This document shows positions 6,114-30,943 of a stretch of 31,014 bases of DNA, one piece after another. Source of the stretch: a virus (Duplodnaviria > Caudoviricetes); the IMG/VR virus record IMGVR_UViG_3300006120_000061, positions 1 through 31,014 of that record; one strand, given 5' to 3'. A program made the translations under genes and the position numbers. The notes beneath the pieces were generated by a model. The model saw only the letters and a program-made list of their open reading frames with translations. It was not told the origin of the DNA and did no database searches. Numbering within the stretch: the stretch's first letter is position 1; every line of letters starts with the position of its first letter.

Positions 6114-6188
6114 TTCACTATTGAATCAATTAGTGTTATTATCTACCTATAGGCAACTATAACCAGCCCCATCGCATTGGGGTTTTTT
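6114..6188 (+). promoter_or_regulatory. promoter + TAGGCAA leader + terminator, copy 1 (before portal)
   Basis: TTCACT-N17-(TGn)TATTAT(6137); TAGGCAA 6150; AGCCCCA-TCGCAT-TGGGG-T6. Confidence 0.75.
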
Positions 6189-6205
6189 AATTTAAGGAGC
6201 ATTAC

Positions 6206-8401
6206 ATGTCAACACAATGGGATTATGGTTCAGCAGCACCAGCCTTTGACGATACTAAAGTAGACAGGATTGGTGACAGACCACCTGAAGTTATTGATGA
6301 ACTTCCATCACTATCATTAGACATACCTGACACAGACATTATTAAAAACTTAAACAATCGTATCAACGATTCACAAGGTTATTGGAACGATAGCGTAGGC
6401 TATAACATGTCTAAGGTACTAAACGATAACCAAAGACTATACTTGAACAAACAGCAGGATACTAGACAGCTATACCGCTATCAAATGCCATACAATGAGA
6501 ACCAAGTATATGTTGCAGTACAGTCAATCAAAGCATATCTTACTGCTCGTACACCTGAACCAGAAGTTAGCCCAAGCCAAGACACACCTAGAGCACGCAA
6601 GTTTGCTATGGACTTAGAAAAGATATTGATGGCTCACTCCAGCAAAGTACAGCTATCCAAGATGCTTGAGGACTTATCACAGCTAGCACTTATTAAGCGT
6701 GTTGGTTTCCTAGAATTAGAGTTTGACCCGAGCGTTGGTAAGAATGGTGAGATTGTACCAAGAGTTCGTGACCCTGAACATTGTTGCGTTGACAAAAATG
6801 CTATGCAGACTGACAACCCAGCTTTCTTCTCAATCACTATAAAGATGTCAGTAAATGAAATGTGTTCACGCTGGCCAGAGAAAAAAGAAGAAATTTATGC
6901 ACAGTGCAACATTGTTCGTGGAACATACAAACAACTAGAACAAGTAGTATCTATCCGAAAGGTTTACTTAACCCACTACGATAAGAACTACGAAGCACAC
7001 GAAGGTTTAGTATATTACTTTAATGATTGTGTACTAGAGAAGATGAAGAACCCTAACTGGTTATATGCAGACAAGAGCAAGAACTTTAGTGATTCACCTA
7101 TAAAGCCAATCATAGCCCTAAACTTTGACAACGATGGCTCACACTGGATAAGCCAGACATCAGCAGTAGAACAAGCTATGCCAATGCAGAACATGTTAAA
7201 CAAGAGAGGTAGACAACTATCTGAACTTGCAGACAAAGCCAATGGTGTTCTTATTGTTTCAAGCGAAACAGGTCTTACCAAAGATGATTTACAGAACCTA
7301 ACGATGGACCCTAACCAGAGATTAATCATCAAAACTTCAAACAAGAGCGCCCAAGAATTAGTTTATCAACTCCCACCGCCACAAATCGCACCGTTCCTGT
7401 ATCAGGACAAAATGGATATTAGAGCACAAGTTGGAAACATCATGGGCGCACCAGTTGACTTCACTGGACAAGATGACAAGACTAACTCCGAAGATACACT
7501 TGGTCAATCATTACTTAAAAAGAACCAAGCTGCTGGTCGACAAGACTTATACATTCGTTCAATAGATAGGTTCATGAATCAATACTTTAACCTACTATTC
7601 CAGATGATGATAGTTTGGTACAACGAAGACCACATGTTTGTCTACAATGGTAACGATGGTGAGTTTGACTATTTAATGGCTAACAGATATTTATTTGATG
7701 AAGGTATTGCAGTCAATGTAAAAGCTGGCTCTACTCCACCAATCGACAAGCAACGCCAAGAAGCTATCGCATTACAACTATCTAAGATGGGCGTATTATC
7801 ACCACTTGATATATACAAGATGCTACACTTGCAAAACCCACAGCAGTTATATGACAACTACTCTAAGTTCAAAGCTGACCCTATGTCACTTGCTCGTGAT
7901 GCTATGGATGATGTTGACTCAACTAAGGCATACATGGCTTGGACAGTTATTCGTGCTGGTAAAGAAGCCGAAGATGCTAAAGATGCTGACAAAGAATTTG
8001 TACTCACACTTCGTAAGATTATGCTCACAGATGAGTTCCTTGACTCTAAGAAATCTGTTCAGAAGAAGTTCCTTACTTATGTTGATAAGGCAATATCTAG
8101 TCTTGAACTTAGAACTAGCTTAGATCAGATGAGCCAACAAGGTGTGCAGAATTTAGAAACTAACATTCCTATACAACCACCACAACCAGCACAGCCACCA
8201 ATGAGTCAACCTCCTATGGGCGGTAGCGCAATACCTCCAATGGGTGGACAACCACCAATGGGACAACCTAGTGCTATCCCACCAATGGGAGCAGGACCAG
8301 TAGCTCCAGGCGGACCAGTACAAAATGGTACACCACTTATGAACCCAGCTAACCCACAGATGCCACCAGCTGGAAACGTTACAAGTTTGCCAACTCTTTA
8401 A
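6206..8401 (+). CDS. portal protein (P22/podovirus-like size) with Pro/Gln/Gly/Met-rich C-terminal tail
   Basis: 731 aa; position between terminase and scaffold/capsid; helical acidic composition; AAGGAG SD. Confidence 0.8.
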   Translation: MSTQWDYGSAAPAFDDTKVDRIGDRPPEVIDELPSLSLDIPDTDIIKNLNNRINDSQGYWNDSVGYNMSKVLNDNQRLYLNKQQDTRQLYRYQMPYNENQVYVAVQSIKAYLTARTPEPEVSPSQDTPRARKFAMDLEKILMAHSSKVQLSKMLEDLSQLALIKRVGFLELEFDPSVGKNGEIVPRVRDPEHCCVDKNAMQTDNPAFFSITIKMSVNEMCSRWPEKKEEIYAQCNIVRGTYKQLEQVVSIRKVYLTHYDKNYEAHEGLVYYFNDCVLEKMKNPNWLYADKSKNFSDSPIKPIIALNFDNDGSHWISQTSAVEQAMPMQNMLNKRGRQLSELADKANGVLIVSSETGLTKDDLQNLTMDPNQRLIIKTSNKSAQELVYQLPPPQIAPFLYQDKMDIRAQVGNIMGAPVDFTGQDDKTNSEDTLGQSLLKKNQAAGRQDLYIRSIDRFMNQYFNLLFQMMIVWYNEDHMFVYNGNDGEFDYLMANRYLFDEGIAVNVKAGSTPPIDKQRQEAIALQLSKMGVLSPLDIYKMLHLQNPQQLYDNYSKFKADPMSLARDAMDDVDSTKAYMAWTVIRAGKEAEDAKDADKEFVLTLRKIMLTDEFLDSKKSVQKKFLTYVDKAISSLELRTSLDQMSQQGVQNLETNIPIQPPQPAQPPMSQPPMGGSAIPPMGGQPPMGQPSAIPPMGAGPVAPGGPVQNGTPLMNPANPQMPPAGNVTSLPTL

Positions 8402-8433
8402 CTTTAGAGTAAAATAAGCATCAAGGAGGAATA

Positions 8434-9432
8434 ATGGATACAAATTCAATTCCAGGTCTAACTTTAAGTCCAAGCTTAGACGCTAAACTAAACGCACTAG
8501 ATGATAACCTACAACCTTTAGAGAAGGAGGAAGTTAAGAGTGAAAACGTACCAACAGAGGAAACAACAAAAGAAGATGACACAGCTCCACAAGCTGAAGA
8601 AGAACAAGAAGTCGATGAATCTGAGGAAGCAGGCGATGATAGTGAAGAAAGCGGCGATGAAGAATCTACAGAGCCAGCAGATGATGATGACTCCGCCTAC
8701 ACTATAGATGAAGGTGATGATGAAGATGTACAATCTGAGCCAGCACCCACAACCTCAACCCAAGCTGGTCCTAACCAGTTCACAGCCGAACAGCAATACA
8801 TACTAGACAACATACAACCTATTAAGGTTCGTGGTGATGTTGGTGGTGAAACCAAAGAGTTCGAAATATTAACTCCAGACCAACTACCAGCAGGATTCAA
8901 ATTCCTAGACGATAGGGACATGGCACTTGCGACTAAAGCATTTGCTATGCTTGAACAGAAAGCCGAACAACTACAGAATGATTTTCGTAATCAGGAAACA
9001 AACAAAGCTGCTAAAGAATTCAAGCAAAAAGAAGATGATGCAGACCGACAGGACATTGGCGCATTACAAAGAAGTGGTGACTTGCCTAAGTTTACTGTTG
9101 CATCAACAGACCCTAAGTTCGAACAAGATCCAAACGTACAACTTGTACAAGACATATTAGATTTTAAGGAAGCACAGAACCAGAAATACTTTGATGAATA
9201 CCAAGCTGGTCGACCTTACAAGCACATTGGCTTTGAAGAAGCATTTAGAATGTTTAAGCGTGAACAACCTGCTAAGGCTAACCAAGCACAAGTTAAAGAA
9301 GATGCTGAACGAAAGAATGTAGCCAAGAGAACCACAGGAAGTAAAAGCAACAAAGCTGATGCACCTAGACCTAGAACTGTACTTCGTAGCAGTAGAGATA
9401 TTGATAGTTTTATCGAGAACCTTGACTGGTAA
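8434..9432 (+). CDS. putative capsid scaffolding protein
   Basis: 332 aa, long acidic disordered N-terminus and coiled-coil, located between portal and capsid. Confidence 0.65.
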   Translation: MDTNSIPGLTLSPSLDAKLNALDDNLQPLEKEEVKSENVPTEETTKEDDTAPQAEEEQEVDESEEAGDDSEESGDEESTEPADDDDSAYTIDEGDDEDVQSEPAPTTSTQAGPNQFTAEQQYILDNIQPIKVRGDVGGETKEFEILTPDQLPAGFKFLDDRDMALATKAFAMLEQKAEQLQNDFRNQETNKAAKEFKQKEDDADRQDIGALQRSGDLPKFTVASTDPKFEQDPNVQLVQDILDFKEAQNQKYFDEYQAGRPYKHIGFEEAFRMFKREQPAKANQAQVKEDAERKNVAKRTTGSKSNKADAPRPRTVLRSSRDIDSFIENLDW

Positions 9433-9455
9433 TAAATTAATAAGAAAGGAACGCC

Positions 9456-9707
9456 ATGCACAATTGGTGGATCGCAGCATTAGAACATGCTGGTATATGG
9501 ACAAGAGAACAAGCACAACATGTTTCTGAGAACATCAGATTAACAACTCATCGTGAGAACTATAAAGAAGCTTACGAAGAACTAATTGATATATTAGAAA
9601 AAGGTAATTACTTAGAGCAAGGTGTAGTCAAGCGATTAGGACAAGATGTTGCACATCTAAAGTCAGTTGCTGAAACCAAAACTATTGCAAAGCCAAAGAA
9701 AGTCTAG
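9456..9707 (+). CDS. hypothetical protein
   Basis: 83 aa, AAAGGA SD, co-oriented with the head genes. Confidence 0.7.
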   Translation: MHNWWIAALEHAGIWTREQAQHVSENIRLTTHRENYKEAYEELIDILEKGNYLEQGVVKRLGQDVAHLKSVAETKTIAKPKKV

Positions 9708-9759
9708 TATTATAAATTCATAGGCAATCAAACTAGCCCCTCACCTGAGGGGTTTTTTT
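9685..9759 (+). promoter_or_regulatory. promoter + TAGGCAA leader + terminator, copy 2 (before major capsid)
   Basis: TTGCAA-N17-TATTAT(9708); TAGGCAA 9721; AGCCCCTC-ACCT-GAGGGG-T7. Confidence 0.8.
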
Positions 9760-9793
9760 AATTTACCTACAATAATTAAATAAAGGAGATAAC

Positions 9794-10882: not shown

Positions 10883-10906
10883 GTTTGATAGAAAGGATTA
10901 TTTATC

Positions 10907-11683: not shown

Positions 11684-11706
11684 TATCCTTTTAAGGAGGG
11701 GTACTT

Positions 11707-12255
11707 ATGGCAATCATTAATAAAAACCGCCTATTAGAGAAGTACGTTCAAGTTGTCCGAATGGATGGCTTAAACACAAACAAAAACGTAAACGTTGGTA
11801 TCGCAGCGGGTGGCTCTACAGCTACCTTAAGCGTTGGTGCTGGTGGTATCTCTACTACTGGACCATTGGTATCAGGTGCTAGCACTCAAAACCATACTTC
11901 AGTAGCTATTAACGCTACAGCAACAGCTACAGCTGTACAGGTTGCAAGTGGATACATTACATCTACTTCAGCCGCAGCAGTAGGAATTACTTTGCCTACA
12001 GCTACAGCTCTAGCTACACAGCTAGGTGCAACAGCAGGTTCAGTATTTGACCTTTACATAGATAACACAGCAGGTGCTAACACAGTTACAGTAACAGCTG
12101 GTTCAGGAATGACCGCTTCAGCAGTAGCTCAGGTTGCAACTTACGGTGTACCTACATTTGGTCTTATGACTGTTCCTTCAGGTACAAGTGGACAAGGTTG
12201 TTTCCGATTTGTTTTCTCATCGGCAACAGCATGTACATACGCTAGAATATTCTAG
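11707..12255 (+). CDS. putative virion structural protein
   Basis: 182 aa, A/T/G-rich, ITLPTA motif, AAGGAGG SD, in the capsid operon. Confidence 0.6.
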   Translation: MAIINKNRLLEKYVQVVRMDGLNTNKNVNVGIAAGGSTATLSVGAGGISTTGPLVSGASTQNHTSVAINATATATAVQVASGYITSTSAAAVGITLPTATALATQLGATAGSVFDLYIDNTAGANTVTVTAGSGMTASAVAQVATYGVPTFGLMTVPSGTSGQGCFRFVFSSATACTYARIF

Positions 12256-12274
12256 TAAAAACTAAGGAGAATAT

Positions 12275-13075: not shown

Positions 13076-13095
13076 AACAAATACAAACAGCAACT

Positions 13096-13119
13096 AGCCC
13101 CTCAAAGCAGGGGTTTTTT
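13096..13119 (+). terminator. intrinsic terminator closing the capsid operon
   Basis: AGCCCCT-CAAAGC-AGGGG-T6; lacks the TAGGCAA-N7 leader. Confidence 0.8.
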
Positions 13120-13145
13120 GCATTAGAGGAATTAAGTGCTATAAT
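13118..13145 (+). promoter_or_regulatory. promoter for a probably leaderless transcript
   Basis: TTGCAT-N16-(TGc)TATAAT, with only 6 nt between the -10 and the ATG at 13152. Confidence 0.65.
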
Positions 13146-13151
13146 GCGAAT

Positions 13152-13367
13152 ATGAATAGGAATGAGCTAGAACAGGCTCGAGCTAATATTGAAACTCAGT
13201 ATAATAATCTGAGCAATAATGCTTGGGTTTCGCAAGAGCTTAAGTACCTACAGGGCAAATATGATGCCTTGACTGAGTTAATAAACAAACTATCTAACGA
13301 GGAGGCTCAAAATGCCACAAGTCAATCCACAACAAGCAAGTCAAAAGACAGCAACGTCAATAAGTGA
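13152..13367 (+). CDS. hypothetical protein
   Basis: 71 aa, helical; promoter directly upstream. Confidence 0.65.
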   Translation: MNRNELEQARANIETQYNNLSNNAWVSQELKYLQGKYDALTELINKLSNEEAQNATSQSTTSKSKDSNVNK

Positions 13368-13833
13368 AGGTAAACCTTTCCGAGAACGCTTAAGAGATAG
13401 ATACAAGGCTACTGACTACGTTAGAGTAATTAACATAGACAATGAAGAATTCACATGGCAATACTTTCCAATTGATGGTGAGCTTGAAACATTTGATGAC
13501 AATGGTGCTACAAGAGTCATACAGGGTCGCCAGAGGTTTACAAGTAACTTTGACGGTAGATTAGCTGGCAACGAGCAAATATGGGCTCTAGGAGCTGGAG
13601 AAACTGAAGTATTGGTTGGTGCAAATTCTGATTTATTCATAGAAGGATTGTACAAGAAGCTTATTGCTAAGAAGCGTATTTCTGATAACCCAAAAATTTC
13701 TGAAACACAGGCACGAAGCTTCAACTGGAACGATGGATTATTACAAGAACAGATGATAGATAAATTATTCTTAGGAATAGAAAATCCAACCTTCAATGAA
13801 CCTCAACGAAGCCAAACTACAGCAAAGAAGTAA
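13312..13833 (+). CDS. hypothetical protein
   Basis: 173 aa, GAGGAGG SD. Confidence 0.75.
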   Translation: MPQVNPQQASQKTATSISEGKPFRERLRDRYKATDYVRVINIDNEEFTWQYFPIDGELETFDDNGATRVIQGRQRFTSNFDGRLAGNEQIWALGAGETEVLVGANSDLFIEGLYKKLIAKKRISDNPKISETQARSFNWNDGLLQEQMIDKLFLGIENPTFNEPQRSQTTAKK

Positions 13834-14587
13834 GGAACTTGACGCTAGGGAAGAATACCTAGATGCTAAATTAAAGACGCTTGAAGAAGCTCCAATTACA
13901 TTAAAAGTATATGAAGCAAGATTCAAAGTATTTGAAGATAAGTTAGAGGCTATCCAATTGCAAGTTAAACAAGCTACACAACAATTTGATGAAAATACAA
14001 GAATATATAATGCTCACTATGATAATTACCAAGAACTAGAAGATAACATAAAAAAAGAAAAGTTATTTGTTAATGAACTTAAGAGAGAAGCACAGGAAAG
14101 CAAACGAGAAGTTACTCTTGCTAAGAATGAACTTAAATCTTTAGAGAGATACTTAAAAGAACAGCAGGAATTGATTGACCAAAGCGTTACACAAGGCAAT
14201 AAGAAGTTATTAGACCTACAAGATAATATGTTCGAGTTGGAACATGAGATTAATGAACTGAAAAACGCCAGAACTAGCTTAGAACATGACATAGATGATA
14301 TAGCATTGGTTAAAATACAAGATGAGCAAGACTTATACAATGTGCTTAATACACTTAGTGATCAAAAAGCTAATCTTGAAAACGAAATTAATGAACTTAT
14401 TAACCGAATTACTAAGAAAAGTGCTGAGTACAAGCGTGTAGAAGCACAAACTAGTGAAAAGTTAAACAAACTTAAAGAAAAAGAAGAAAGTATAATTGCT
14501 AAAAGAGATGCACTACGACTTGAAAGACAAGAACTTGAAGAAGATAAACGCAGATTTACTTCAACTAAATCATTATACGAAGATTAG
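13796..14587 (+). CDS. long coiled-coil protein
   Basis: 263 aa, E/K/L/Q-rich heptad-like sequence almost free of Pro and Gly. Confidence 0.75.
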   Translation: MNLNEAKLQQRSKELDAREEYLDAKLKTLEEAPITLKVYEARFKVFEDKLEAIQLQVKQATQQFDENTRIYNAHYDNYQELEDNIKKEKLFVNELKREAQESKREVTLAKNELKSLERYLKEQQELIDQSVTQGNKKLLDLQDNMFELEHEINELKNARTSLEHDIDDIALVKIQDEQDLYNVLNTLSDQKANLENEINELINRITKKSAEYKRVEAQTSEKLNKLKEKEESIIAKRDALRLERQELEEDKRRFTSTKSLYED

Positions 14588-14643
14588 TGATATAATATGT
14601 GTTATTAGGCAACTAACTAAGCCCCATTAGGAGGGTTTTTTTT
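14588..14643 (+). promoter_or_regulatory. promoter + TAGGCAA leader + terminator, copy 3 (before fibre-like gene)
   Basis: TGaTATAAT 14588-14596; TAGGCAA 14606; AGCCC-CATTAGGA-GGG-T8. Confidence 0.75.
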
Positions 14644-14647
14644 ATTT

Positions 14648-17238: not shown

Positions 17239-17311
17239 TTGTTATCAGAAAACAATAATGATATAATCGTTTCATAGGCAACTATATCAGCCCCTCACAA
17301 GGGGTTTTTTT
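17239..17311 (+). promoter_or_regulatory. promoter + TAGGCAA leader + terminator, copy 4 (before tail gene block)
   Basis: TTGTTA-N17-(TGa)TATAAT(17262); TAGGCAA 17275; AGCCCCT-CACA-AGGGG-T7. Confidence 0.8.
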
Positions 17312-17329: not shown

Positions 17330-17716
17330 ATGGCATATACACCAACACCTCTAAGACAAAAAGGAACACAATCTTTTGGCTCATTGGTACAAGATCAAAA
17401 CAGAGTAGAAATGACAGGTGCTATTGGAAACACATTACAGTCACAAGACGCAACAGCAACACCTGTACTATCACCATTAACTAATGGTAGTGCCTCAGGA
17501 TTTGCTCTTACAGTACCAGCTAACGCAGTACAATGTACAATCTATTGCACCACAGTAGCAGTTACACTATTAGTCGGTGAGGATTCAAGTTACGCTCAGG
17601 GTATGTTTGTACCTGCAACAACTTATTTCACAGTAGATTGCGCAAGAATGGCTAATATTTATATTAAACCTTCTAGCGGTACTAACACTATATATTTCCA
17701 ATTCAAAGTAGTTTAA
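17330..17716 (+). CDS. putative virion structural protein
   Basis: 128 aa, AAGGAG SD. Confidence 0.65.
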   Translation: MAYTPTPLRQKGTQSFGSLVQDQNRVEMTGAIGNTLQSQDATATPVLSPLTNGSASGFALTVPANAVQCTIYCTTVAVTLLVGEDSSYAQGMFVPATTYFTVDCARMANIYIKPSSGTNTIYFQFKVV

Positions 17717-17726
17717 GGAGATTTAA

Positions 17727-18089
17727 GTGGCAGTTAAGAATGTAACAACTTGGGCTCCAGCAAGTGGAGCAGGAACAATTCAGCAACAGGCTAGTTTTAA
17801 CCTTGCCACAAATACTGGTTCTTTAATAGTTACTAACTCTGGCAACTTCTTAGTCACAACTACAAACAAATATATACCAAAAAGTTTATCTACATGGACA
17901 TTGACTCCTAAAACAAAAACAACATGGGGTGCGCCAAGTGGTACAGGTTATTTCAAAGCAGGAACAGTTACTGCAATAACAGATCAATTAGCTTCAAACA
18001 TTACCGACCAAACAGGTGCATCAATAACAGATAATGGTGTAAGTTATTCAGACAAATACGTAACAACATGGACAGCGAGCGGAGCATAA
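17727..18089 (+). CDS. putative virion protein with short internal repeats
   Basis: 120 aa, GTG start with AAGGAG; repeated TTW and ITD(Q/N) motifs. Confidence 0.65.
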   Translation: MAVKNVTTWAPASGAGTIQQQASFNLATNTGSLIVTNSGNFLVTTTNKYIPKSLSTWTLTPKTKTTWGAPSGTGYFKAGTVTAITDQLASNITDQTGASITDNGVSYSDKYVTTWTASGA

Positions 18090-18090
18090 T

Positions 18091-19002
18091 ATGGGACAAC
18101 TTAATTCATACCCAACAGCCAGCACAATAGACGCAGTAAATGACAAGTTAGTTATATGGACTAACTCTTTAAGTGCTGTTCAAAACATTAACCGAAATAC
18201 GTTCCTCAATTTATCTTCCCAGCCTGTCGGACTGAGTGATTCCCAGACGCTGACAAACAAAACACTCACATCACCTACTATTAATGGTGCTACTTTAAGT
18301 GGCACCCTTTCTGGAACATACACAATAGGTGGTACACCAACATTTCCTTCCTCAGTCACACAGAACACTGTTGTGCAGACGTTAACCAACAAAACGTTAA
18401 CAAGTCCAACTATTAACTCACCAACCATTACAAACGCTACAATAAGTGCAGATACACTTACTGGATATACAACTTCAAACAGTGGAACAATATATGGTGT
18501 ATCTATAACAAGTGGTGCAATTAATGGTTCTTCATTAACATCATCTAGTGTACCTTTAACAAAATTAACATCCGATTCTTCATGGGCTTGGACTACTTGG
18601 ACTCCAACATTTACAAACTTCACTATAGGTAATGGAACATTAAATTGTTATTACGTCACAGTTGGTAAAAATGTTTATTTCACTATGCAAGTAGTTTTAG
18701 GTACAACTTCTTCGGTAGGAACAAACCCCTACTTCACTTTACCAGTGAACAACAATACAACTACTTATCCAACAACTGGTAATAATCAAAATATGATAGC
18801 TACAGGTTGGGGTTTTGTAGGAGGTAGTAATTATTTCTTATATGGTGCAATAAACAACACAACAGGTGCTAATAAATGTCAATTACTAGCTTCTTTAGTT
18901 TCTTCTACTTATGTTCAAATAACTGGAGTTTCTGCAACTGTTCCAAATACATGGGCTAACACTAACCAAATTACTTTGCAAGGGGTTTACCAATCATCAT
19001 GA
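18091..19002 (+). CDS. tail fibre-like protein, paralog 1
   Basis: 303 aa; QTLTNKTLTSPTIN twice; C-terminal domain beginning WTTWTPTFT, a pattern common in fibre tip domains. Confidence 0.7.
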   Translation: MGQLNSYPTASTIDAVNDKLVIWTNSLSAVQNINRNTFLNLSSQPVGLSDSQTLTNKTLTSPTINGATLSGTLSGTYTIGGTPTFPSSVTQNTVVQTLTNKTLTSPTINSPTITNATISADTLTGYTTSNSGTIYGVSITSGAINGSSLTSSSVPLTKLTSDSSWAWTTWTPTFTNFTIGNGTLNCYYVTVGKNVYFTMQVVLGTTSSVGTNPYFTLPVNNNTTTYPTTGNNQNMIATGWGFVGGSNYFLYGAINNTTGANKCQLLASLVSSTYVQITGVSATVPNTWANTNQITLQGVYQSS

Positions 19003-19919
19003 GTAATGTAACAATAAACTCATTACCAACTGCAAGCACAATAGATGCTACTAATGATTTACTTCCTATTTACACTAATTCATTAACAGCTACTCAAGCT
19101 ATATCTAGGAACACTTATCTTAACCTATCTAGTCAGCCAGTAGGATTAACAGATAGTCAAACACTTACTAATAAGACATTGACTTCTCCAACAATAAATG
19201 GTGCAACATTATCTGGAACATTATCTGGTACTTATACTATTGGTGGAACTCCTACATTTCCTGCAACAGTAGTTCAGACAACTACAAGCCAAACATTAAC
19301 TAACAAAACACTTACAAGCCCTACAATAAACAGTCCTACAATTACTAATGCAACTATATCAGCTGACACACTTACAGGATATACAACAAGTAATTCAGGT
19401 ACTATTTATGGAGTGCCTGTAACAACTGGAACTATTTCTGGTAGCTATTTAACAAGTGGTACAGTTACTTCAACTCAGATAGCTACTAATGGAGTAGCTG
19501 CAACTAACCTAGCAACATCAGCAATTACTTTAGGGTATGCGCAAATAACAACCAATGTAACAACCACAGCAACAAGTGCTTCTTACGCAACAGGATTAAC
19601 AATTACTGTAACTATTCCTGCTGGTGGTCGCAGGGTCAAGGTTACCGTATATACAGTAGCTTTAAATACAAGCGGTAGTGGTAATGCACAGATGTCGTTA
19701 TGGACTGGTGCTTCAGCGGGTACATTAACTACGCAATTACAACAATGGAACGCGCCGCAAGGAACAAATCTTAATGCAGGAGCTAGTATGATATTTTCTC
19801 ACATACCCTCTGCGGGATTGCTAACATATAATATTGGCTTTAATAGTACATCAGCAGGTACTACAACTTTAAGTGCAGCATCAAATCTGCCTGCATTTAT
19901 TTTAGTGGAGGCAATCTAA
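18999..19919 (+). CDS. tail fibre-like protein, paralog 2
   Basis: 306 aa; N-terminal about 150 aa nearly identical to paralog 1, different C-terminal domain. Confidence 0.7.
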   Translation: MSNVTINSLPTASTIDATNDLLPIYTNSLTATQAISRNTYLNLSSQPVGLTDSQTLTNKTLTSPTINGATLSGTLSGTYTIGGTPTFPATVVQTTTSQTLTNKTLTSPTINSPTITNATISADTLTGYTTSNSGTIYGVPVTTGTISGSYLTSGTVTSTQIATNGVAATNLATSAITLGYAQITTNVTTTATSASYATGLTITVTIPAGGRRVKVTVYTVALNTSGSGNAQMSLWTGASAGTLTTQLQQWNAPQGTNLNAGASMIFSHIPSAGLLTYNIGFNSTSAGTTTLSAASNLPAFILVEAI

Positions 19920-19935
19920 TGAGGAGAAATAAAAA

Positions 19936-20838
19936 ATGCTAACTTTTACCACAATGTATAACAGAGCAGTCAACATGGTTGGCATTAGCTCTACAACAAA
20001 CGCTCAAGATGTTACTAACATGAAGTCAGATATAAATCAGGCTTTAAGATTATTTAAGAATTCATCAAGAAGATACTGGACTCGTAAAGAAGTATCGGCT
20101 AACTTGGTTGCTGGTCAGCAGTATTACACATTTCCAGAAGATATGGTTCGTATTACTGAGGTTAAGTCTAATACAGGTTCTGGAAGTTATAACTGGCCGC
20201 TTGTAGGAATTGATTCCGAAGCTATATGGAACAGATACAACATTATTCCAAACAATACATTAATGGTGCCTCAGTTTTACTTCATTAGAGGTAGGAACGA
20301 AATTGGTTTATATCCAATCCCTTCACAGAATGTTACAGCAGGACTTATTGTAAGCTATGAGCCACGTATGCTCGATATGAATACAGATGATACAACTACA
20401 ACCACTGTTACAGTTACAAATGGATCACAGTATGTTACAAGCCCAAGTACAAACTTCAGTACAAACATGGTAGGTATGCAATTCAGTGTTACTGACGGAA
20501 GTGATGGTAACTGGTACCTAATAACAGCTGCAACAGCTACACAGCTTACACTAGAGAACGCTTATCAAGGTCCTAGTTCTAGTGCAGTAGCTTGTACTAT
20601 TGGACTTGTTCCAGATATTCCAGAGGAGTATCAATTAGGCTTAGTTTATTACGCTTGTTATAATTACTACTTGAAGCGTAATGAAATGGCTAACGCTACA
20701 CTATATAAAAGTCTGTATGAAGAACTGCTCAATAGATTTGTTGATGTGTACGCAGCTAAAACAACTGGTATTGTTCAGAAATCAATTAGTGATGATATAT
20801 TCAACATCTTCTGGTTGCCACCAGGAACGATGTCATAG
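19936..20838 (+). CDS. putative head-tail adaptor protein
   Basis: 300 aa; YYTFPEDM, IGLYPIP and PDIPEEYQLGLVYYA motifs recalled from podovirus-like adaptor proteins; GAGGAG SD. Confidence 0.6.
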   Translation: MLTFTTMYNRAVNMVGISSTTNAQDVTNMKSDINQALRLFKNSSRRYWTRKEVSANLVAGQQYYTFPEDMVRITEVKSNTGSGSYNWPLVGIDSEAIWNRYNIIPNNTLMVPQFYFIRGRNEIGLYPIPSQNVTAGLIVSYEPRMLDMNTDDTTTTTVTVTNGSQYVTSPSTNFSTNMVGMQFSVTDGSDGNWYLITAATATQLTLENAYQGPSSSAVACTIGLVPDIPEEYQLGLVYYACYNYYLKRNEMANATLYKSLYEELLNRFVDVYAAKTTGIVQKSISDDIFNIFWLPPGTMS

Positions 20839-20847
20839 GAGGTCAAT

Positions 20848-22956
20848 ATGGCAGGTCCTAAAAACACAGAAAAGTTCAAGATTAACAATGAATACTTTCA
20901 GGGTGGTATTTCTGTTGACCCAAAGTTAGCTGTTGCTAATTCATTTTATTACTCACAAAACTTAGACTTTAGAAGCAAGCCAAGTCAAATATCTGTACTT
21001 CCTGGCACACGACAAATAGCTAGTAACATGAATGACTTAGTTACTGCTATGGATCAGGACTTAAATGGCGTTAGATGGGGCGTAGGAGCATCTGGTGGTT
21101 TATATAAGATAAACAACTCGAATGTTATTTCTAAGGTCGCCCAACTGCCCGAAAATGGCTCTGCTGGGCTTTTATACAACCAAGTAACTGACCAACTCTA
21201 CATTCCAGGTCAAACTAGTGTATCAATGTATGGACAAGTCACTTCTGGTAACACAGGAAACCCAAACTACAAGCCAAACCAATTTGGTATATCTGCATCA
21301 CAGGGTAATGGATGTGTAAACATATTTAATACAAGTTCTGGATTCTTTGATGGTAACGCTGGTGTTAGAAACAATGCTGCAGCCATAAACCAAGTAGGTA
21401 TTACAAGCTCAAGCCAAGTTACAACATATTCAACAGCAACTTACACCTTGCCAAATACATTAACTGAAACGACAGGTAATTATTGCTACTTTGCTCCAGA
21501 CATAGAACCATTTCACTCAATAGATGTTTACATTACTAACATTGGAACAGGTAACTGGACACTTACACTACATGATAGCCTCAACAATGCTCTTGCTTCT
21601 GTAACAGTAACTAATGCCAACTTAACAGCCAACGCATATAACAAATTTACATTTGGTAAGCAAATTAGAGCTATTGTGAACGCTTCACAGACAGGTACTA
21701 GTGCAACTTACCATTTTCACTTAACATCTAGTGTAGCCAGCGATACTGCAACAGTTGGAACTATTACAGCTGGTGATTTATCTAGTGTTGACTTCTTGCT
21801 TTACGCTTACAGGCTTATTCAGACAAGTAATGGCTGGCACCCAACTGCTTTCTTTACAGGTGGTGGTGTTCCTTTGCTTTGTATAGGTAATGGTCAATAC
21901 TTATCCACATATAACTTTGGTAATGATGCAAACCCTACAAATTATCAATGGAATAGACATGCACTTTATTTCAAACCAGGTTACGAAGTTTGTGGAATAA
22001 CATCTAACAACCAATATCTAGTTATTGCTGCCGAAAGACGATCGAGTAACACAAGTCGTAGTTTCCAAGATGGAATACTTTACTTTTGGGATGGAACGAC
22101 CAATGCACCTAACTTTACAATAGATATACCAATGGGCGCACCTTATGGAATATACACATTTAACAATGTTACTTATTTCTTTGTAGGTGGTTCATTATTT
22201 GCATGGAGTGGTGGACAGACTGTTATTAAAGTTAGAAATATGGGTTACCAGAATACTGATTACTTAAATGCTAGTGATAGCACAATTATTAACCCTAACA
22301 TGATGACATCAAGATATAACTTACTCATGATGGGCTTTCCAAGTTCAACAACTAACTCAAATATACCTTATGGAGTTTATTCTTGGGGTACAGTCGAGCT
22401 TACATTTCCTAATAGCTTTGGATTAAGTTACACACTTTCAAATGGCTATGTAAACAATAACACCTCTGGTATTACAAACTTACAAATAGGTACGATACAA
22501 AACTTTGTAGATTCTATGTACATTTCATGGAGCTATACTTTGGCTGGAGTTACATACTATGGTATGGATGTTGTGGATAACTTTTCTACACCTGCAAGCA
22601 CATATAGCTGGCAATCGTTAATCTATGATGGTGGAGTTAGATATAAATCTAAAAAGGCATTAAGAATGAAAATATCCTTCTTGCCATTACCTACTGGAAC
22701 AACTCTTACAGCCCAATACTCATTGGACAGAGGTGCGTTTAAGTCTACTGACCCAATAAGCGGTAATTCATATACTGCAACAACAGGAGATACAAGCCTT
22801 ATTGTTGAATTTGATAACATGCGATTTTTTGAATTTCAATGGGGATTCTTTGGCACATGTTCAAGTTCGGCTGCATCAGCACCAACAATAACAAGTGTTG
22901 CAATAGAAATTGATGGACTTGCAGATGAAGTTGCACTTAAGAAGGATTACGCATAA
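20848..22956 (+). CDS. putative tail nozzle/stabilisation protein (P22 gp10 / T7 gp12-like role)
   Basis: 702 aa; N-terminal FQGGIS...QNLDFR, beta-propeller-like aromatic repeats (YFWDG, FAWSG); follows the adaptor. Confidence 0.55.
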   Translation: MAGPKNTEKFKINNEYFQGGISVDPKLAVANSFYYSQNLDFRSKPSQISVLPGTRQIASNMNDLVTAMDQDLNGVRWGVGASGGLYKINNSNVISKVAQLPENGSAGLLYNQVTDQLYIPGQTSVSMYGQVTSGNTGNPNYKPNQFGISASQGNGCVNIFNTSSGFFDGNAGVRNNAAAINQVGITSSSQVTTYSTATYTLPNTLTETTGNYCYFAPDIEPFHSIDVYITNIGTGNWTLTLHDSLNNALASVTVTNANLTANAYNKFTFGKQIRAIVNASQTGTSATYHFHLTSSVASDTATVGTITAGDLSSVDFLLYAYRLIQTSNGWHPTAFFTGGGVPLLCIGNGQYLSTYNFGNDANPTNYQWNRHALYFKPGYEVCGITSNNQYLVIAAERRSSNTSRSFQDGILYFWDGTTNAPNFTIDIPMGAPYGIYTFNNVTYFFVGGSLFAWSGGQTVIKVRNMGYQNTDYLNASDSTIINPNMMTSRYNLLMMGFPSSTTNSNIPYGVYSWGTVELTFPNSFGLSYTLSNGYVNNNTSGITNLQIGTIQNFVDSMYISWSYTLAGVTYYGMDVVDNFSTPASTYSWQSLIYDGGVRYKSKKALRMKISFLPLPTGTTLTAQYSLDRGAFKSTDPISGNSYTATTGDTSLIVEFDNMRFFEFQWGFFGTCSSSAASAPTITSVAIEIDGLADEVALKKDYA

Positions 22957-23291
22957 TGTTTGGCGGAGGCGGTTCACAGTTTACTAGTGATGTTTACCAA
23001 AACACCCCTAATATGTCGATGATGTTTACCATGTTTACACCTACATTTGGTAATGGTGATTTTATTATTCAACCACCTAATCCTGGCGAACTCGGACAAG
23101 GTTTTCCAACAATTCCTTACTTACCCCTTGAAGCATTAATTTACCAGCAACAATCAAGCAACCCTAATGTATCACCTGTTAATACAATGGCTGGTAGCAA
23201 TACAGGACAACAAGTTATATCATCAACTCAATCTACTAACGATCAAACTGGAATACCTAGAATGGTTGTTGGTAATCAAAACACTACTTAG
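22956..23291 (+). CDS. hypothetical structural protein
   Basis: 111 aa, TAATG coupling with the upstream gene. Confidence 0.6.
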   Translation: MFGGGGSQFTSDVYQNTPNMSMMFTMFTPTFGNGDFIIQPPNPGELGQGFPTIPYLPLEALIYQQQSSNPNVSPVNTMAGSNTGQQVISSTQSTNDQTGIPRMVVGNQNTT

Positions 23292-23299
23292 GAGTAATT

Positions 23300-23542
23300 A
23301 TGGCAACACAAGCAAATGTACCGTCAGGTTCAAGTAACGAATTCTTTGGTCAAAAGGTTTCTAAAAAAGGTATCAATGTTTATAACGCCTCTGATAAAGA
23401 TTTAATTTACAAAAACGATTACTCCACAACTACCTACTATGATGCTACTAATGCTAGAATACTTATAGGCTTACTTCCAGACGGAAGCTATGGCATAGTA
23501 ATATCTAAACCAGGATATGATGTAATTAAATTATTTTCATGA
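23300..23542 (+). CDS. hypothetical structural protein
   Basis: 80 aa, AGGAG SD; VSKKG/ISKPGYDV motifs. Confidence 0.65.
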   Translation: MATQANVPSGSSNEFFGQKVSKKGINVYNASDKDLIYKNDYSTTTYYDATNARILIGLLPDGSYGIVISKPGYDVIKLFS

Positions 23543-23904
23543 CAGTTAATAATACCAACTTGAATTATAACTCCAATTGGGATATAGATCAGCTTACACA
23601 ATCTGGTACTACAACAATTACTGCTGCAACAGGAGTTAATTCATATTCAATAGCCAATGTATCTTTTACTAACCCACCAGTGGTTGAAGTTTATTATCAA
23701 CCTGCTGGAACAAATTATTGGTTTCAAGCTGCTAGTCCAATAGGAGGTTTTGGTGGCACAATTGGATTAAATGCTATGAATAAAATTACAGTGGCATGGA
23801 TATCAAGTTCTACTAATCTTAGTGTTCAAGTAAATAATGGTTCAAGTGGCACAATTAACTTAAAGATTAGATATTATATTTGGTCAGATAAAATTAATTA
23901 TTGA
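23539..23904 (+). CDS. hypothetical tail-tip-like protein
   Basis: 121 aa, ATGA coupling, ends IRYYIW. Confidence 0.6.
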   Translation: MTVNNTNLNYNSNWDIDQLTQSGTTTITAATGVNSYSIANVSFTNPPVVEVYYQPAGTNYWFQAASPIGGFGGTIGLNAMNKITVAWISSSTNLSVQVNNGSSGTINLKIRYYIWSDKINY

Positions 23905-24251
23905 TGAGTATTCCTACTAAAAATTTACAATACATATCGTTTAGTTCCCAATTTAGATATGAATATATAGCTAAAAAAGGAAATGTCTATACAAATACGT
24001 CTGCGGTCGTAAACCATAATTTAGGATATGTTCCATTTTATAAGTTGTATATCAAATATCCAAATGGTGTTTATTCTTCTACAAGTAACGCTCCATCTGC
24101 TGGCTACATTACTCCAAGCGTGGGTTACCAAGAATTTACAGTTAGTTCAAATGCTACAAGTACCTCTTTAACAATTACACCATTTGATGAAACTTTAGCT
24201 AATAGATTTGTTACAATATATTACAGAATTTATGCGGAGCCACAATCATGA
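23904..24251 (+). CDS. hypothetical tail-tip-like protein
   Basis: 115 aa from ATG 23904 (TGATG coupling); VNHNLGYVP motif; ends IYYRIY. Confidence 0.6.
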   Translation: MSIPTKNLQYISFSSQFRYEYIAKKGNVYTNTSAVVNHNLGYVPFYKLYIKYPNGVYSSTSNAPSAGYITPSVGYQEFTVSSNATSTSLTITPFDETLANRFVTIYYRIYAEPQS

Positions 24252-24604
24252 GTATTAATTACGCTGGATTGCAAATGTCTTCTTCCACATCTTCATTAAA
24301 AATATTATTACAAGGTAAAGGAAGTGGTATTATACCAGCTAATGATGGAACAGGTGTAGTAACTTACACACAAATAGTAATACCTCATGGATATGCCAAT
24401 GATAATCTCATCTGGCAAGTTGGAGTTCAAGATTCAGCATTAGGAAGTTATCAAATTTTACCTTTTGGTTCACATGATAATACTAGACTTTATATTGCAT
24501 ATCTCGATTCTACTAATTTATATATAGAAGGTATTGAAAACGAACCTTTCTCATCTATTCCTAATATTAATTTCAATTATTATTATCGAATTTTCATACC
24601 ATAA
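24248..24604 (+). CDS. hypothetical tail-tip-like protein
   Basis: 118 aa, ATGA coupling; IPHGY motif; ends YYYRIF. Confidence 0.6.
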   Translation: MSINYAGLQMSSSTSSLKILLQGKGSGIIPANDGTGVVTYTQIVIPHGYANDNLIWQVGVQDSALGSYQILPFGSHDNTRLYIAYLDSTNLYIEGIENEPFSSIPNINFNYYYRIFIP

Positions 24605-24680
24605 TTGAATATTTTATTGTAGGGTGTATAATGTTAGATATTAGGCAACTAACATAGCCCTTCGAAGGAGGGTTTTTTTT
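24605..24680 (+). promoter_or_regulatory. promoter + TAGGCAA leader + terminator, copy 5 (before ejection-like genes)
   Basis: TTGAAT-N16-TATAAT(24627); TAGGCAA 24642; AGCCCTTC-GAA-GGAGGG-T8. Confidence 0.75.
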
Positions 24681-24685
24681 ATTTT

Positions 24686-25618
24686 ATGGCACCAGTATCA
24701 GCATCACAAACAGCAGCAGACGTAAATGCAGCCAGACAACAAGGGCAAGCATTACAAAATCAATATAACCAACAAGCTGGTCAGACTTATGGTCAGTATC
24801 AGAATACGCTAGGAACTGCTCAACAATCACAGCAAAGTTTACAGGACTACGCTAACCAAATGGCTAAAACTAATTATGGTGATGTATATGCACAAGATTT
24901 AGCATCTGCACAGCAACAATATGGATTTAACCCTCAATCATTAGCTCTAGCAAATAAAAACTTACTTAACACACAAACTGCTTTACAATATGCCCCACAA
25001 GCTGCTCAACAAGGTGGGAACTATTATGGTGCTACTGCTGGTCAAACACAGCAAGCATACCAGAACATGGGTCAAAATCTTAATGCCACATTAGCTAACC
25101 AATCTAACGCTGTTAATCAATATCAAAACTTATTGTCTGCAACTCAAAATCAAGCCAATCAACAAGCTGGACAGCAAATAGCTGGTTCAACTGCAACATC
25201 AGATGCGTTAACAAACGCTGCAGCTCAAGCTAATCAAGTAATGGCTAATGCTGAAAAAACAATGAACGACATAGAAACTTTGCAACAAAGTCAAGGTAAA
25301 GTTACTGCAGATCAAATTGCTGCATATCAGAATGCTTACAATAATTATCTATCAGCTAAAGCTTCCCAAGTTTCTGCTCAAGGTCAATTATTATCAGGAC
25401 AAGCTGCAAAGCAAACTTCAGACCAACAAATTACTCAATACCAAAACTTACAGGCTGGAATGAAAGCTATATATGGTAACGATTGGCAAAAAGCTATTGC
25501 ATATTTGCAAAATGGTCAAAGTGTCCCAGCTAATTTATCAAGCGCACCAACTCCTCAATCTAGTGTTACTATAGGCGGAGGCGGTGGTGGTGTATCAGGA
25601 AGTAGTGTATTACGATGA
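24686..25618 (+). CDS. Gln/Ala-rich helical protein, putative internal virion/DNA ejection protein
   Basis: 310 aa; composition and position after tail genes. Confidence 0.55.
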   Translation: MAPVSASQTAADVNAARQQGQALQNQYNQQAGQTYGQYQNTLGTAQQSQQSLQDYANQMAKTNYGDVYAQDLASAQQQYGFNPQSLALANKNLLNTQTALQYAPQAAQQGGNYYGATAGQTQQAYQNMGQNLNATLANQSNAVNQYQNLLSATQNQANQQAGQQIAGSTATSDALTNAAAQANQVMANAEKTMNDIETLQQSQGKVTADQIAAYQNAYNNYLSAKASQVSAQGQLLSGQAAKQTSDQQITQYQNLQAGMKAIYGNDWQKAIAYLQNGQSVPANLSSAPTPQSSVTIGGGGGGVSGSSVLR

Positions 25619-27669: not shown

Positions 27670-27951
27670 TTAATTCTTTTTTAGTTCAGCTTTTATTGCT
27701 TCTGTTGGTACTTCTCTAACAAATAATATGTTGTCTTCTTTTTCTAAATCTATTTCAAATACTAAGTTCTGGTCATCGCTGTAATCAAATCTGTTATTAC
27801 AAACTTGGTATAGGTACCCTGAAATAATCTTATCTTTGTAAACATTAAACTGGCAGGAAATGTTAACTAACTTGATGTAATTTACTTCCCTATCTGTTAG
27901 TTCATGCTTTGTGCCTTTTGGTTCTTTCTCAGCGTTCTTAATTTTACCCAT
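27670..27951 (-). CDS. hypothetical protein
   Basis: 93 aa, AAGGAG SD, last gene of the groES/EL operon. Confidence 0.7.
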   Translation of the reverse strand: MGKIKNAEKEPKGTKHELTDREVNYIKLVNISCQFNVYKDKIISGYLYQVCNNRFDYSDDQNLVFEIDLEKEDNILFVREVPTEAIKAELKKN

Positions 27952-27960
27952 TACATCTCC

Positions 27961-28206
27961 TTATAGTTTTTTTAAGTCTTGGTCACTAGGTAAGAAATTA
28001 TATACTTCTTTGCTTTCCATTGGAAAAGCTTTCACAAAGTCTTCGTTAACACTACCATCTCTTTTATATGGCTGAACAATATCTCTAGCGTGGTCATTTC
28101 TTTGCATATTGTGATCATGCTGTTTGAAAGTAGCATTATATCTACCTGTCATTTGGTCAATGTTTGGTTGACCCCTGTGATATTTACCATCTAATATATA
28201 ACCCAT
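27961..28206 (-). CDS. hypothetical protein
   Basis: 81 aa, TAATG coupling. Confidence 0.7.
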   Translation of the reverse strand: MGYILDGKYHRGQPNIDQMTGRYNATFKQHDHNMQRNDHARDIVQPYKRDGSVNEDFVKAFPMESKEVYNFLPSDQDLKKL

Positions 28207-28490
28207 TATCTTGGCTTAACCTTTACATTAAGATTCATTTCTCTAAGGCGTTCGGATTCTTCCCATTCAAGTTGTTGAGGTGTTTTAGGTTCAACAACAC
28301 CAACTTCACCATCTTGGTTAATTCTTTGTATAGTTCCGCCATTGTAACTACCAGCAGTAGCCCCTATTTCTGGTTCTGGTTCGGATATTTTCTTTTCTAG
28401 TTTCTTTATAGTAGTTTGTAAGTCTTTATAAACATATCCTACAACTGTGCCAATAAGTGCAAAGATTAAAATCTCTACAATAGTTTTCAT
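28206..28490 (-). CDS. hypothetical protein with an N-terminal transmembrane segment
   Basis: 94 aa, IVEILIFALIGTVVGYVY; TAATG coupling to groEL. Confidence 0.7.
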   Translation of the reverse strand: MKTIVEILIFALIGTVVGYVYKDLQTTIKKLEKKISEPEPEIGATAGSYNGGTIQRINQDGEVGVVEPKTPQQLEWEESERLREMNLNVKVKPR

Positions 28491-30043: not shown

Positions 30044-30293
30044 TTGCGTATCCTTTTATATCTTTATAACTAATAAATGAATATGTTTTATCGTCTACGC
30101 TAAATTGGGTACCATCTTTAAAATCTTCAAAAAATACTTTCTTGCCAAGTAATATCTCGTGGTCTTCATTAGATACAGCTTTGACTATTCCAGATGTCTT
30201 TGTTGAGTATTGTTTATCTGGTGTAACAACTGCGCTGTATGTTTCAGCTAGTTCTATGAGTACATTATTGTTGATTGGCGTTAACTCATTCAT
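30036..30293 (-). CDS. groES: GroES/Cpn10-like co-chaperonin
   Basis: 85 aa; LTPINNNVLIE, SGIVKAV, GKKVFF and KDIKG match the GroES layout; adjacent to groEL. Confidence 0.85.
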   Translation of the reverse strand: MNELTPINNNVLIELAETYSAVVTPDKQYSTKTSGIVKAVSNEDHEILLGKKVFFEDFKDGTQFSVDDKTYSFISYKDIKGYANV

Positions 30294-30301
30294 TGATTTT
30301 T

Positions 30302-30343
30302 ATTATAGCAGTATGCCGATTATGATGCAATCTATGTTATAAT
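30302..30343. promoter_or_regulatory. back-to-back promoters for groES-groEL (minus) and HNH (plus)
   Basis: Minus: TTGCAT(30330-30325)-N17-(TGc)TATAAT(30307-30302). Plus: TGtTATAAT 30335-30343. Confidence 0.7.
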
Positions 30344-30349
30344 AAAGTA

Positions 30350-30880
30350 ATGAAATCATGTATTAAATGTTTTGAAAATAATCAAAAAAAATTACGATTA
30401 TATTCGCCATATTGTCTAAAATGTAATTCAGAAAGAATAAAAAAATATTATAAAAAAAATGAAAAATATAGAGAGTATGCTAAAAACTTCAGTGTTAATA
30501 AATATAAAAAACAAATAAACGGTAAATATAAACTAGTACACAAATCTGTAACATTAGAAGAAAGGATTAAAAAATTTTGGGAACAAGCAAAACTAAACGT
30601 CAAAAATGGTTGTTGGGAATGGCAAGGATATATATTTTATCCCAAAAGAACGCCTGAAGGATATGGTAAAAATGGTCATCCTATAAAAAATGAACAAGCT
30701 GCTCATAGGATTTCATATACAATTGCTAATGATGTACCAATCCCAAAAGGTTATGTAGTAAGACATGGTTGCAACAATACAATTTGTGTTAACCCTTATC
30801 ATTTAGATATAGGAACTGTAGCAGATAATAACAAGGATAAAATAGTTCAAAATAAATCTGTTGGTATTGTCTGGAGTTGA
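30350..30880 (+). CDS. HNH (His-Cys box-like) homing endonuclease
   Basis: CWEWQG...GYG...AHRISY...VRHGCNNTICVNPYHL...NNKD; N-terminal CxxC...CxxC; visibly more A-rich than its flanks. Confidence 0.9.
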   Translation: MKSCIKCFENNQKKLRLYSPYCLKCNSERIKKYYKKNEKYREYAKNFSVNKYKKQINGKYKLVHKSVTLEERIKKFWEQAKLNVKNGCWEWQGYIFYPKRTPEGYGKNGHPIKNEQAAHRISYTIANDVPIPKGYVVRHGCNNTICVNPYHLDIGTVADNNKDKIVQNKSVGIVWS

Positions 30881-30943
30881 TAAATAATATATAATCTCAA
30901 TAGATAGGCAAATATATCAGCCCCAAGTAACTGGGGTTTTTTT
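30867..30943 (+). promoter_or_regulatory. promoter + TAGGCAA leader + terminator, copy 6
   Basis: TTGTCT-N17-TATAAT(30890); TAGGCAA 30905; AGCCCCA-AGTAAC-TGGGG-T7. Confidence 0.8.

Follow-up and report, generated by a model that had tools for sequence, protein, structure and literature searches.

Gene content of the window

The DNA analysed here, hereafter the window, is a 31-kb virus record (IMG/VR IMGVR_UViG_3300006120_000061; 31,014 nucleotides, nt) that consists of a single contig, with no others in the record, and represents a partial genome. Our subject is a set of six short leaders in it, each combining a promoter-like site with a terminator-like hairpin just ahead of a gene, together with a gene for a 72-amino-acid (aa) zinc-ribbon protein that is a candidate for the factor acting on them. 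In a PHROG search the open reading frames (ORFs) of the window were found to encode terL, the portal protein (phrog_156, E 1e-13), the major capsid protein (phrog_9953, E 3e-56), GroEL/GroES, a methylase and an HNH nuclease, and there were weak tail and structural matches besides. The closest named phage is the TM7 phage DolZOral124_53_65 (MG269973.1), with a capsid identity of 56.7% and a TM7 host as stated in that record; one of the two bacterial-genome matches sits on a contig of a Saccharibacteria metagenome-assembled genome. A Saccharibacterium (TM7) is therefore the likely host. A search for relatives of the capsid of phage MW202566 (30% identity) found none. G-, L- and P-numbers below designate, respectively, the genomes of relatives, their loci, and homologous proteins.

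Six leaders before the late genes

An earlier note on this DNA had drawn attention to the heptamer TAGGCAA, which occurs on the plus strand at 6150, 9721, 14606, 17275, 24642 and 30905, and we recovered all six copies; two more, on the minus strand at 9082 and 11992, stand there without the other parts of the element. The leaders, and a seventh hairpin of the same type, are as follows.

6114..6188, plus strand: leader 1 (-35 at 6114, -10 at 6137, GGC at 6152, AGCCC at 6165, T-tract 6183-6188), before the portal gene (6206)
9685..9759, plus strand: leader 2 (-35 at 9685, -10 at 9708, GGC at 9723, AGCCC at 9735, T-tract 9753-9759), before the major capsid gene (9794)
14591..14643, plus strand: leader 3 (extended -10 at 14591, GGC at 14608, AGCCC at 14620, T-tract 14636-14643)
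17239..17311, plus strand: leader 4 (-35 at 17239, -10 at 17262, GGC at 17277, AGCCC at 17289, T-tract 17305-17311)
24605..24680, plus strand: leader 5 (-35 at 24605, -10 at 24627, GGC at 24644, AGCCC at 24656, T-tract 24673-24680)
30867..30943, plus strand: leader 6 (-35 at 30867, -10 at 30890, GGC at 30907, AGCCC at 30919, T-tract 30937-30943)
13096..13120, plus strand: seventh hairpin of the same type (13096-13115) with T-tract, without the GGC element and with a promoter-like site of its own, including TATAAT, behind it (13117-13145)

The remaining geometry given in that note was reproduced on recomputation. The -10 hexamer is TATAAT in four leaders and TATTAT in two, and its end lies 7, 7, 9, 7, 9 and 9 nt before TAGGCAA. 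AGCCC, with which the terminator-like hairpin begins, follows after 8 nt at 6150 and after 7 nt in the other five; the T-tracts are 6-8 nt long, and the next ATG is 17, 34, 4, 18, 5 and 21 nt away. The five plausible -35 elements, at spacings of 16-17 nt, each match four of six positions, against a background in which 169 of the 744 TANNNT hexamers of the window reach at least four of six (spacers of 15-19 nt being allowed). An extended -10 is present in three copies, including the one without a -35 (14606, TG). By itself TAGGCAA is at chance level (8 observed, 6.48 expected, and 35 of 100 shuffles reach 8), whereas the composite TAGGCAA-N7-8-AGCCC, found six times in the window, appeared in none of 200 third-order Markov simulations.

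The gene labels that the earlier note had attached to the leaders stood in part. The portal and major capsid genes are as it named them, whereas 'fibre', 'tail' and 'ejection' are positional inferences, because the first genes of these blocks, starting at 14648, 17330 and 24686, have no PHROG match. Leader 3 precedes a 580-aa gene without a family match, and carries GGAGG in the 3' arm of its hairpin, 13 nt before the ATG at 14648; likewise leader 5 has GGAGG in the 3' arm, 14 nt before the ATG at 24686. Leader 4 precedes the block 17330-24604, which contains the weak tail and structural matches, and the gene behind leader 6 starts at 30965 and is cut by the window end.

Two folds are predicted for each leader. 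The terminator-like hairpins have energies of -4.4 to -12.6 kcal/mol, the weakest being that at 14606, and a mini-helix of the form GGC-loop-GCC has about -1.7 kcal/mol. The GCC strand is common to the 3' side of the mini-hairpin and the 5' arm of the terminator, so the two folds are mutually exclusive; the mini-helix, being far weaker than the terminator, would need a ligand. At the level of structure the leaders show one feature of a protein-dependent attenuator, an alternative hairpin that excludes an intrinsic terminator. In an Rfam scan of the window tRNA-Thr alone reached threshold and no leader family did, which supports the earlier note; the Rfam entry DUF2815 overlaps copy 6 below threshold (23.7 bits versus 41.2, E 2.3).

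The hairpin at 13096 is likely to be the plain end terminator of the capsid operon and to provide an internal control. Its counterparts in relatives likewise lack GGC.

Leaders of related phages

The regions compared were those upstream of the capsid gene in 51 loci and those upstream of four orthologous genes, the latter amounting to 171 distinct regions, of which 146 contain a terminator-like hairpin. The leader pattern matches 7 of 10 whole records, on one strand in each, and a reversed-pattern control gave no matches; the three records missed carry variant motifs. The leader recurs several times per genome and on the late-gene strand, in line with what the earlier note had expected of a scan of related phages. 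In a uniform scan that looked for a promoter, a hairpin, a T-tract and a start, each of 16 genomes showed, by eye, 3-8 leaders with a shared motif; three distant records showed one apiece. A loose promoter-motif pattern over 33 records was uninformative, with dozens of matches in sample and control alike. The leader is a real and conserved feature.

What stays constant in the relatives is (A)GGC followed, across a loop of 4-16 nt whose last letter is usually A, by (A)GCC, with GGC at 5-13 nt from the -10 hexamer. Both this variable distance and the variable loop length favour an RNA element over a DNA site. For a covariation analysis, anchors were picked blind to pairing, and 174 of 251 candidates (some of them duplicate or false) were parsed. 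The stems comprised GGC..GCC 125 times, GGT..GCC 15, GAC..GTC 10, GGC..GTC 4, GGC..GCT 3 and GAC..GCC not once. The middle pair was G:C in 145 rows, G:U in 5, A:C in 10 and A:U in 14 (Fisher p 1e-10, the rows not being independent); by eye, nine of the ten A:C rows are mis-anchored, with a GG triplet nearby. The GAC..GTC rows represent 8 distinct leaders in 3 phages: G028 has this stem in all six of its leaders, and L212 and L137 have it at the capsid gene and a GG triplet at the portal gene. Compensations confined to a single leader are GGT/ACC in L147 and GGA/TCC in G032.

The arrangement claimed earlier, a promoter, a leader and a terminator gating each late block, was found throughout the family as a layout, but TAGGCAA at a fixed spacing is not the recognised unit. 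The heptamer was rejected in that role, being at chance level alone and varying to CAGGCA, AAGGCA, AAGGT and AGAC in relatives. As the comparison of these sequences indicates, the unit is instead the predicted mini-hairpin (A)GGC...(A)GCC, a competitor of the terminator whose loop is 4-16 nt long.

In a second class of leaders the terminator arm begins with the mini-hairpin, whose loop is C-N3-4-GA. In G026 four complementary stems (GTC/GAC, GCC/GGC, TCC/GGA and TGC/GCA) surround a C-N3-GA loop; this loop type is also present in G005, G024 and G025, and both classes stand in tandem in L223 and in one G026 leader. In the portal leaders of L048 (6468-6530) and L064 (2028-2090) the motif lies in a hairpin that buries an AAGGA Shine-Dalgarno site and is followed by no T-tract, and these are likely to be a translational version of the switch; such an arrangement would be expected of a motif that an RNA-binding protein reads. 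Together with the GGAGG in the 3' arms of copies 3 and 5, they suggest that the same protein may also act on translation. The wiring of the leaders varies, since G004 has leaders also ahead of terL and of a gene upstream of terL.

These comparisons bear on what kind of factor could open the leaders. One proposal is processive antitermination, in which a factor, the zinc ribbon or another, loads onto RNA polymerase at the leader, on DNA as lambda Q does or on nut RNA as lambda N does, and then ignores downstream terminators. The layout agrees with this: a host-type promoter with a terminator behind it, late structural genes beyond and a phage factor for read-through are common to lambda Q at pR'-tR' and to the Q21-like BrrG of the Bartonella gene transfer agent (bioRxiv 10.1101/2024.11.20.624540). 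However, the binding site of Q and BrrG is in promoter DNA, and from a single site they act processively with the help of a -10-like pause element (bioRxiv 10.1101/2024.11.20.624540), whereas here there are at least six sites and a variably spaced, RNA-like element that overlaps the terminator. The spacing from -10 varies over 5-13 nt, and in the register considered 11 of 132 AGGC-spanning hexamers end in T as a pause element of the Q type would. The site shares sequence with the terminator arm and is found anew ahead of each operon, and the capsid operon still ends in a probable plain terminator. No match to the Q family was found among the 41 window ORFs, which come from a partial genome, the early genes of the relatives lying outside the scan. 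Lambda N is a phage protein that reads a nascent RNA hairpin (nut boxB), which a GNRA tetraloop hairpin resembles, and four of the six window copies can form such a hairpin with a GCAA tetraloop. However, its stem is not conserved, at least 3 base pairs (bp) being possible in 17 of 148 leaders, and unlike boxB the window site overlaps the terminator; as the conserved unit, the GNRA/boxB hairpin was ruled out on that count of stems. We consider processive antitermination improbable.

Another proposal is that a host factor or a metabolite opens the leaders, either as a small riboswitch or by a mechanism of the pyrG type, that is, by reiterative G addition, with the added G residues pairing with GCCC. 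There is a GG at the predicted 5' end and a CCC in the terminator arm. Against poly-G addition, there are two G only, at a variable distance from -10, and the GAC/GTC and C-N3-GA loop variants break the model; against a host factor or metabolite in general, no Rfam family reached threshold and the motif differs between phage clades. Such an opening of the leaders seems very improbable.

A zinc-ribbon gene between terL and the portal gene

ORF clustering of 12 records yielded a four-cysteine protein of 72-76 aa encoded between terL and the portal gene. In the window its gene lies upstream of the region on which the earlier note had dwelt, and is the candidate for the factor that acts on the leaders. 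It and its neighbours are as follows.

2952..4596, plus strand: terS-like gene and terL, in the same orientation as the zinc-ribbon gene and coupled to it, with TGGTATAAT directly upstream of 2952
4593..4811, plus strand: 72-aa CxxC..CxxC zinc-ribbon gene, between terL and the portal gene, its ATG overlapping the terL stop, with an alternative GTG at 4584
4799..6082, plus strand: DNA methyltransferase gene, inserted between the zinc-ribbon gene and leader 1, lineage-specific and outside the conserved system

No gating leader of the six-copy type was found for terS-terL in the window. A profile of the zinc ribbon recovered 61 distinct versions among the relatives' loci, and the gene is present in all 131 loci (a redundant set) with at least 1800 nt upstream of the portal gene. 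For 55 of 59 distinct proteins it ends at most 700 nt from the portal start. Among 1.84 billion representatives only 65 clusters match at E<=0.001, and the four cysteines are invariant or nearly so across the family. An AlphaFold model is all-beta with a mean confidence (pLDDT) of 82.7. A fold search with it against 48,161 PDB representatives gave nothing usable (best Z 3.0), a BFVD structure search gave no match at E<=0.001, and NCBIfam no match for the window protein.

Fifteen of the 16 leader-bearing genomes have the zinc ribbon. The sole miss, G006, was set aside as a counter-example, having leaders and no zinc ribbon, because its contig breaks inside terL, where the zinc-ribbon gene would lie. 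In the same genome (L083:143-2392) a large insertion, intein-like at its boundaries, splits terL, which is itself cut by the end of the contig.

In five homologues of 147-173 aa (P0023, P0025, P0038, P0054 and P0061) the zinc-ribbon unit is apparently doubled, a hint that the single form works as a dimer.

Likeness to Mu Com

The zinc ribbon bears a weak but specific resemblance to the Com protein of phage Mu, as measured by profile comparison. With hhalign the probability is 91% (E 1e-6, 31 columns). Mu Com ranks directly below 14 family members and above 64 other small CxxC..CxxC ORFs, scoring 16.8-18.3 bits compared with at most 9.4 for these 64, and the CxxC..CxxC of the zinc ribbon has Com-like flanks (RCxxCxxxLFK ... 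IExxCxxC). In an ESM Atlas structure search, rows 8 and 10 were Com-named clusters with TM scores of 0.45-0.46, below the bar for family naming.

The sequence that Com recognises is CC(N)2-3GAG, located in a C-G-closed hairpin loop beside an inhibitory structure (PMC6483171). The Com core CC(N)3GAG is present in the leaders of G005 (5 of 5), G026 (5 distinct), G024 and G025. Window protein and Com are alike in being small four-cysteine zinc proteins with weak profile similarity (PF10122), and the target of Com, like the proposed target here, is a short hairpin closed by C-G that adjoins a competing inhibitory structure (PMC6483171). They differ in that Com activates translation of one gene, whereas the competing structure here is a terminator-like hairpin repeated (by eye) before 3-8 operons per genome. 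The window loop, of 10-11 nt, has A as its first letter and no Com core, and the window protein has an extra N-terminal strand and an insert of about 19 residues and falls below the Pfam cut-off.

The likeness raises the question whether the zinc ribbon acts mainly on translation, either on the downstream methylase or by exposing ribosome-binding sites in the leaders. In Mu com overlaps mom, and in the window the zinc-ribbon gene has a methylase gene behind it. GGAGG is present in the 3' arms of window copies 3 and 5, and the L048 and L064 hairpins bury a Shine-Dalgarno site. However, a methylase lies between zinc ribbon and portal gene for 1 of 59 distinct proteins, on which ground com-mom style control of an adjacent methylase was dismissed as the conserved role, and in four window copies the Shine-Dalgarno site comes after the T-tract, outside the hairpin. 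An action mainly on translation is thus hardly probable at all.

A clade without leaders

DolZOral124_53_65 shares with the window the portal gene, terL and the groESL operon, but it has no zinc-ribbon gene and no leader before its portal or capsid gene. The zinc-ribbon profile found no match in 14 records of its clade. In this clade terL ends 42-84 nt before the portal gene, and inspection of 24 loci by eye found no hairpin with T-tract after the portal promoter. In nine genomes of this clade, which lacks the gene, the uniform scan, which was blind, turned up 23 candidates that are heterogeneous and share no motif. In a quick portal tree, the base of which is unresolved, the nine form one branch (support 100) among gene-bearing lineages, and the joint absence of gene and leaders is therefore one event.

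In the record MG269973.1 (L246), the major capsid homologue (56.7% identity) is the gene at 18550-19626, which is annotated as 'homeodomain-like protein' and is located away from the portal gene.

That an entire clade manages without leaders could mean that there is no switch: as leaky terminators or 5' stabilisers the hairpins would fix a constant level of expression, or they would only end upstream transcripts. The same type of hairpin serves as the likely operon-end terminator at 13096, and one window copy is weak (-4.4 kcal/mol). This would leave unexplained the conserved and covarying GGC/GCC, which is confined to promoter-proximal copies and missing from operon-end ones, and also the joint absence of leaders and zinc ribbon; we judge it quite improbable.

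Alternatively the leaders are conditional, but the factor is another phage protein, for example the 93-aa product of 27670-27951 in the groESL operon or that of 13796-14587, and the zinc ribbon does something else. Both genes lie outside the leader-gated operons and, like the zinc ribbon, go undetected in the leaderless clade, the former being found in 14 of 16 leader-bearing and none of 9 leaderless genomes, and the latter in 15 of 16 and none of 9. However, the 27670 gene was not detected in the leader-bearing G026 and G006, neither protein matches a nucleic-acid-binding family, and neither accounts for the Com-type loops in G005, G026, G024 and G025. This alternative is unlikely, although it deserves to be kept in mind.

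Proposed mechanism

The leaders are very probably conditional gates. For the whole mechanism, local antitermination of the late operons at the RNA level by the Com-like zinc ribbon of 4593-4811, we would put the probability at roughly 60%, on the strength of the sequence comparisons above. Host polymerase with sigma-70 would fire all the promoters, initiating just upstream of AGGC, and without the protein the six leaders would stop transcription at the T-tract after about 40 nt. The terS-terL-zinc-ribbon transcript, ungated in the window genome, would be made first, and the protein would accumulate. It would then bind the nascent GGC-loop-GCC hairpin before the 3' arm of the terminator is made; the mini-hairpin so held would take away the 5' arm of the terminator, and polymerase would read into the virion genes. 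The 3' arm that would be released in copies 3 and 5 bears GGAGG 13-14 nt before the ATG. The action would be local at each leader rather than processive, and plain terminators such as that at 13096 would still stop transcription.

Several observations weigh against this proposal. Twenty-five of the 171 upstream regions have no terminator, and these include portal genes of zinc-ribbon-bearing phages; in some relatives four T's only follow the stem. The helix has 3 bp, its inner pair is mismatched in some leaders (GGA..GCC), 77 of the 251 candidates failed to parse, and the covarying rows are not phylogenetically independent. The joint absence of gene and leaders is limited to one clade and, by the quick portal tree, to one event, and the same clade has no detectable homologues of 27670, 13796, 17330, 18091, 25615 and 9456; since these six other gene families are undetected there too, the co-loss does not point to the zinc ribbon in particular. 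Neither the window protein nor any of five close homologues matches PF10122 (Zn_ribbon_Com) at E<=1, and among 16 distant homologues P0045 and P0030 score 20.9 and 15.0 bits against a Pfam cut-off of 22.9. The Com core CC(N)2-3GAG is present in none of the six window leaders and, being short, occurs also in other hairpin contexts, for example in 5 of 10 G004 candidates.

ANTAR, BglG/SacY-RAT and HutP systems have a small hairpin, stabilised by a protein, that shares sequence with the 5' arm of an intrinsic terminator and gives local read-through at several leaders, and in both respects, the overlap and the number of leaders, the window system is like them. These are host metabolic regulators under signal control, ANTAR using two hexaloop hairpins and RAT being about 30 nt long, and in protein fold and RNA motif they differ from the window system. 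The set of leaders would work like a protein-dependent attenuator with a Com-like reader. Lambda Q and N, which the earlier note had offered as analogies, appear to be further from it than local RNA-binding attenuation by a Com-like protein, which is the closer analogy. Formally, the system belongs neither to the Com family nor to the Q or N systems, nor to any Rfam family. A full-text literature search found no paper on the leader motif or on a Com-like antiterminator, the supplements of RNA-motif screens, which could list it, and most subscription papers, older work on Mu among them, being outside its scope.

Other features of the window and its relatives

Two tandem promoter-like sites, at 2128-2160 and 2225-2257 on the plus strand, have TTGGCTTGACAGTAATGCTTAC(T/A)AGGC in common, and between their -35 and -10 elements there is an operator-like inverted repeat, GTAA-N3-TTAC. 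Behind the first site lies a terminator-like hairpin (2193-2217). At 2784-2930 (plus strand), after tRNA-Thr and just ahead of the terS promoter, there is a near-consensus promoter (TTGACA-17-TATACT), then some 110 nt in which no ORF is listed, then a T-tract; this is possibly a small RNA. Promoter-like sites that end 6-7 nt before an ATG, at 13117-13152 (plus strand) in the window and at the portal starts of L257 and L268, suggest leaderless mRNAs in this phage family.

The minus-strand segment 27670-30293 is a phage groES-groEL operon that also contains small conserved genes; all 25 genomes compared have GroEL, GroES and the 81-aa gene. The HNH endonuclease gene (30350-30880, plus strand) is an insert, lacking in G001, that separates leader 6 from the divergent groES start. 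The edge gene (30965-31014) resembles, by eye, a family of proteins of 86-108 aa whose function is unknown; with it is listed L070:3249-6694 (minus strand), and in G001 the operon continues into a pectate-lyase-like beta-helix protein and a papain-like protease.

Significance for phage late-gene control

The wider proposal is that Com-like zinc ribbons constitute an unrecognised class of phage late-gene master switches, in which one 72-aa RNA-binding protein opens dispersed attenuators before each virion operon and the target hairpin and the protein co-diverge between clades, the phages in which this is seen here being probable parasites of Saccharibacteria; we think the proposal has about an even chance of holding. 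If it is true, this route to late-gene expression is distinct from processive antitermination by Q or N, from promoter activators and from phage sigma factors, and a function can be assigned to a small, unannotated family of phage proteins. Com-type proteins would then extend from the translation of one Mu gene to the transcriptional timing of the virion programme, and the circuit would be, so far as our literature search reaches, among the first regulatory circuits proposed for phages of Patescibacteria. With a 72-aa protein and a 40-nt leader that exist in several natural sequence classes, the system could also yield orthogonal RNA switches.

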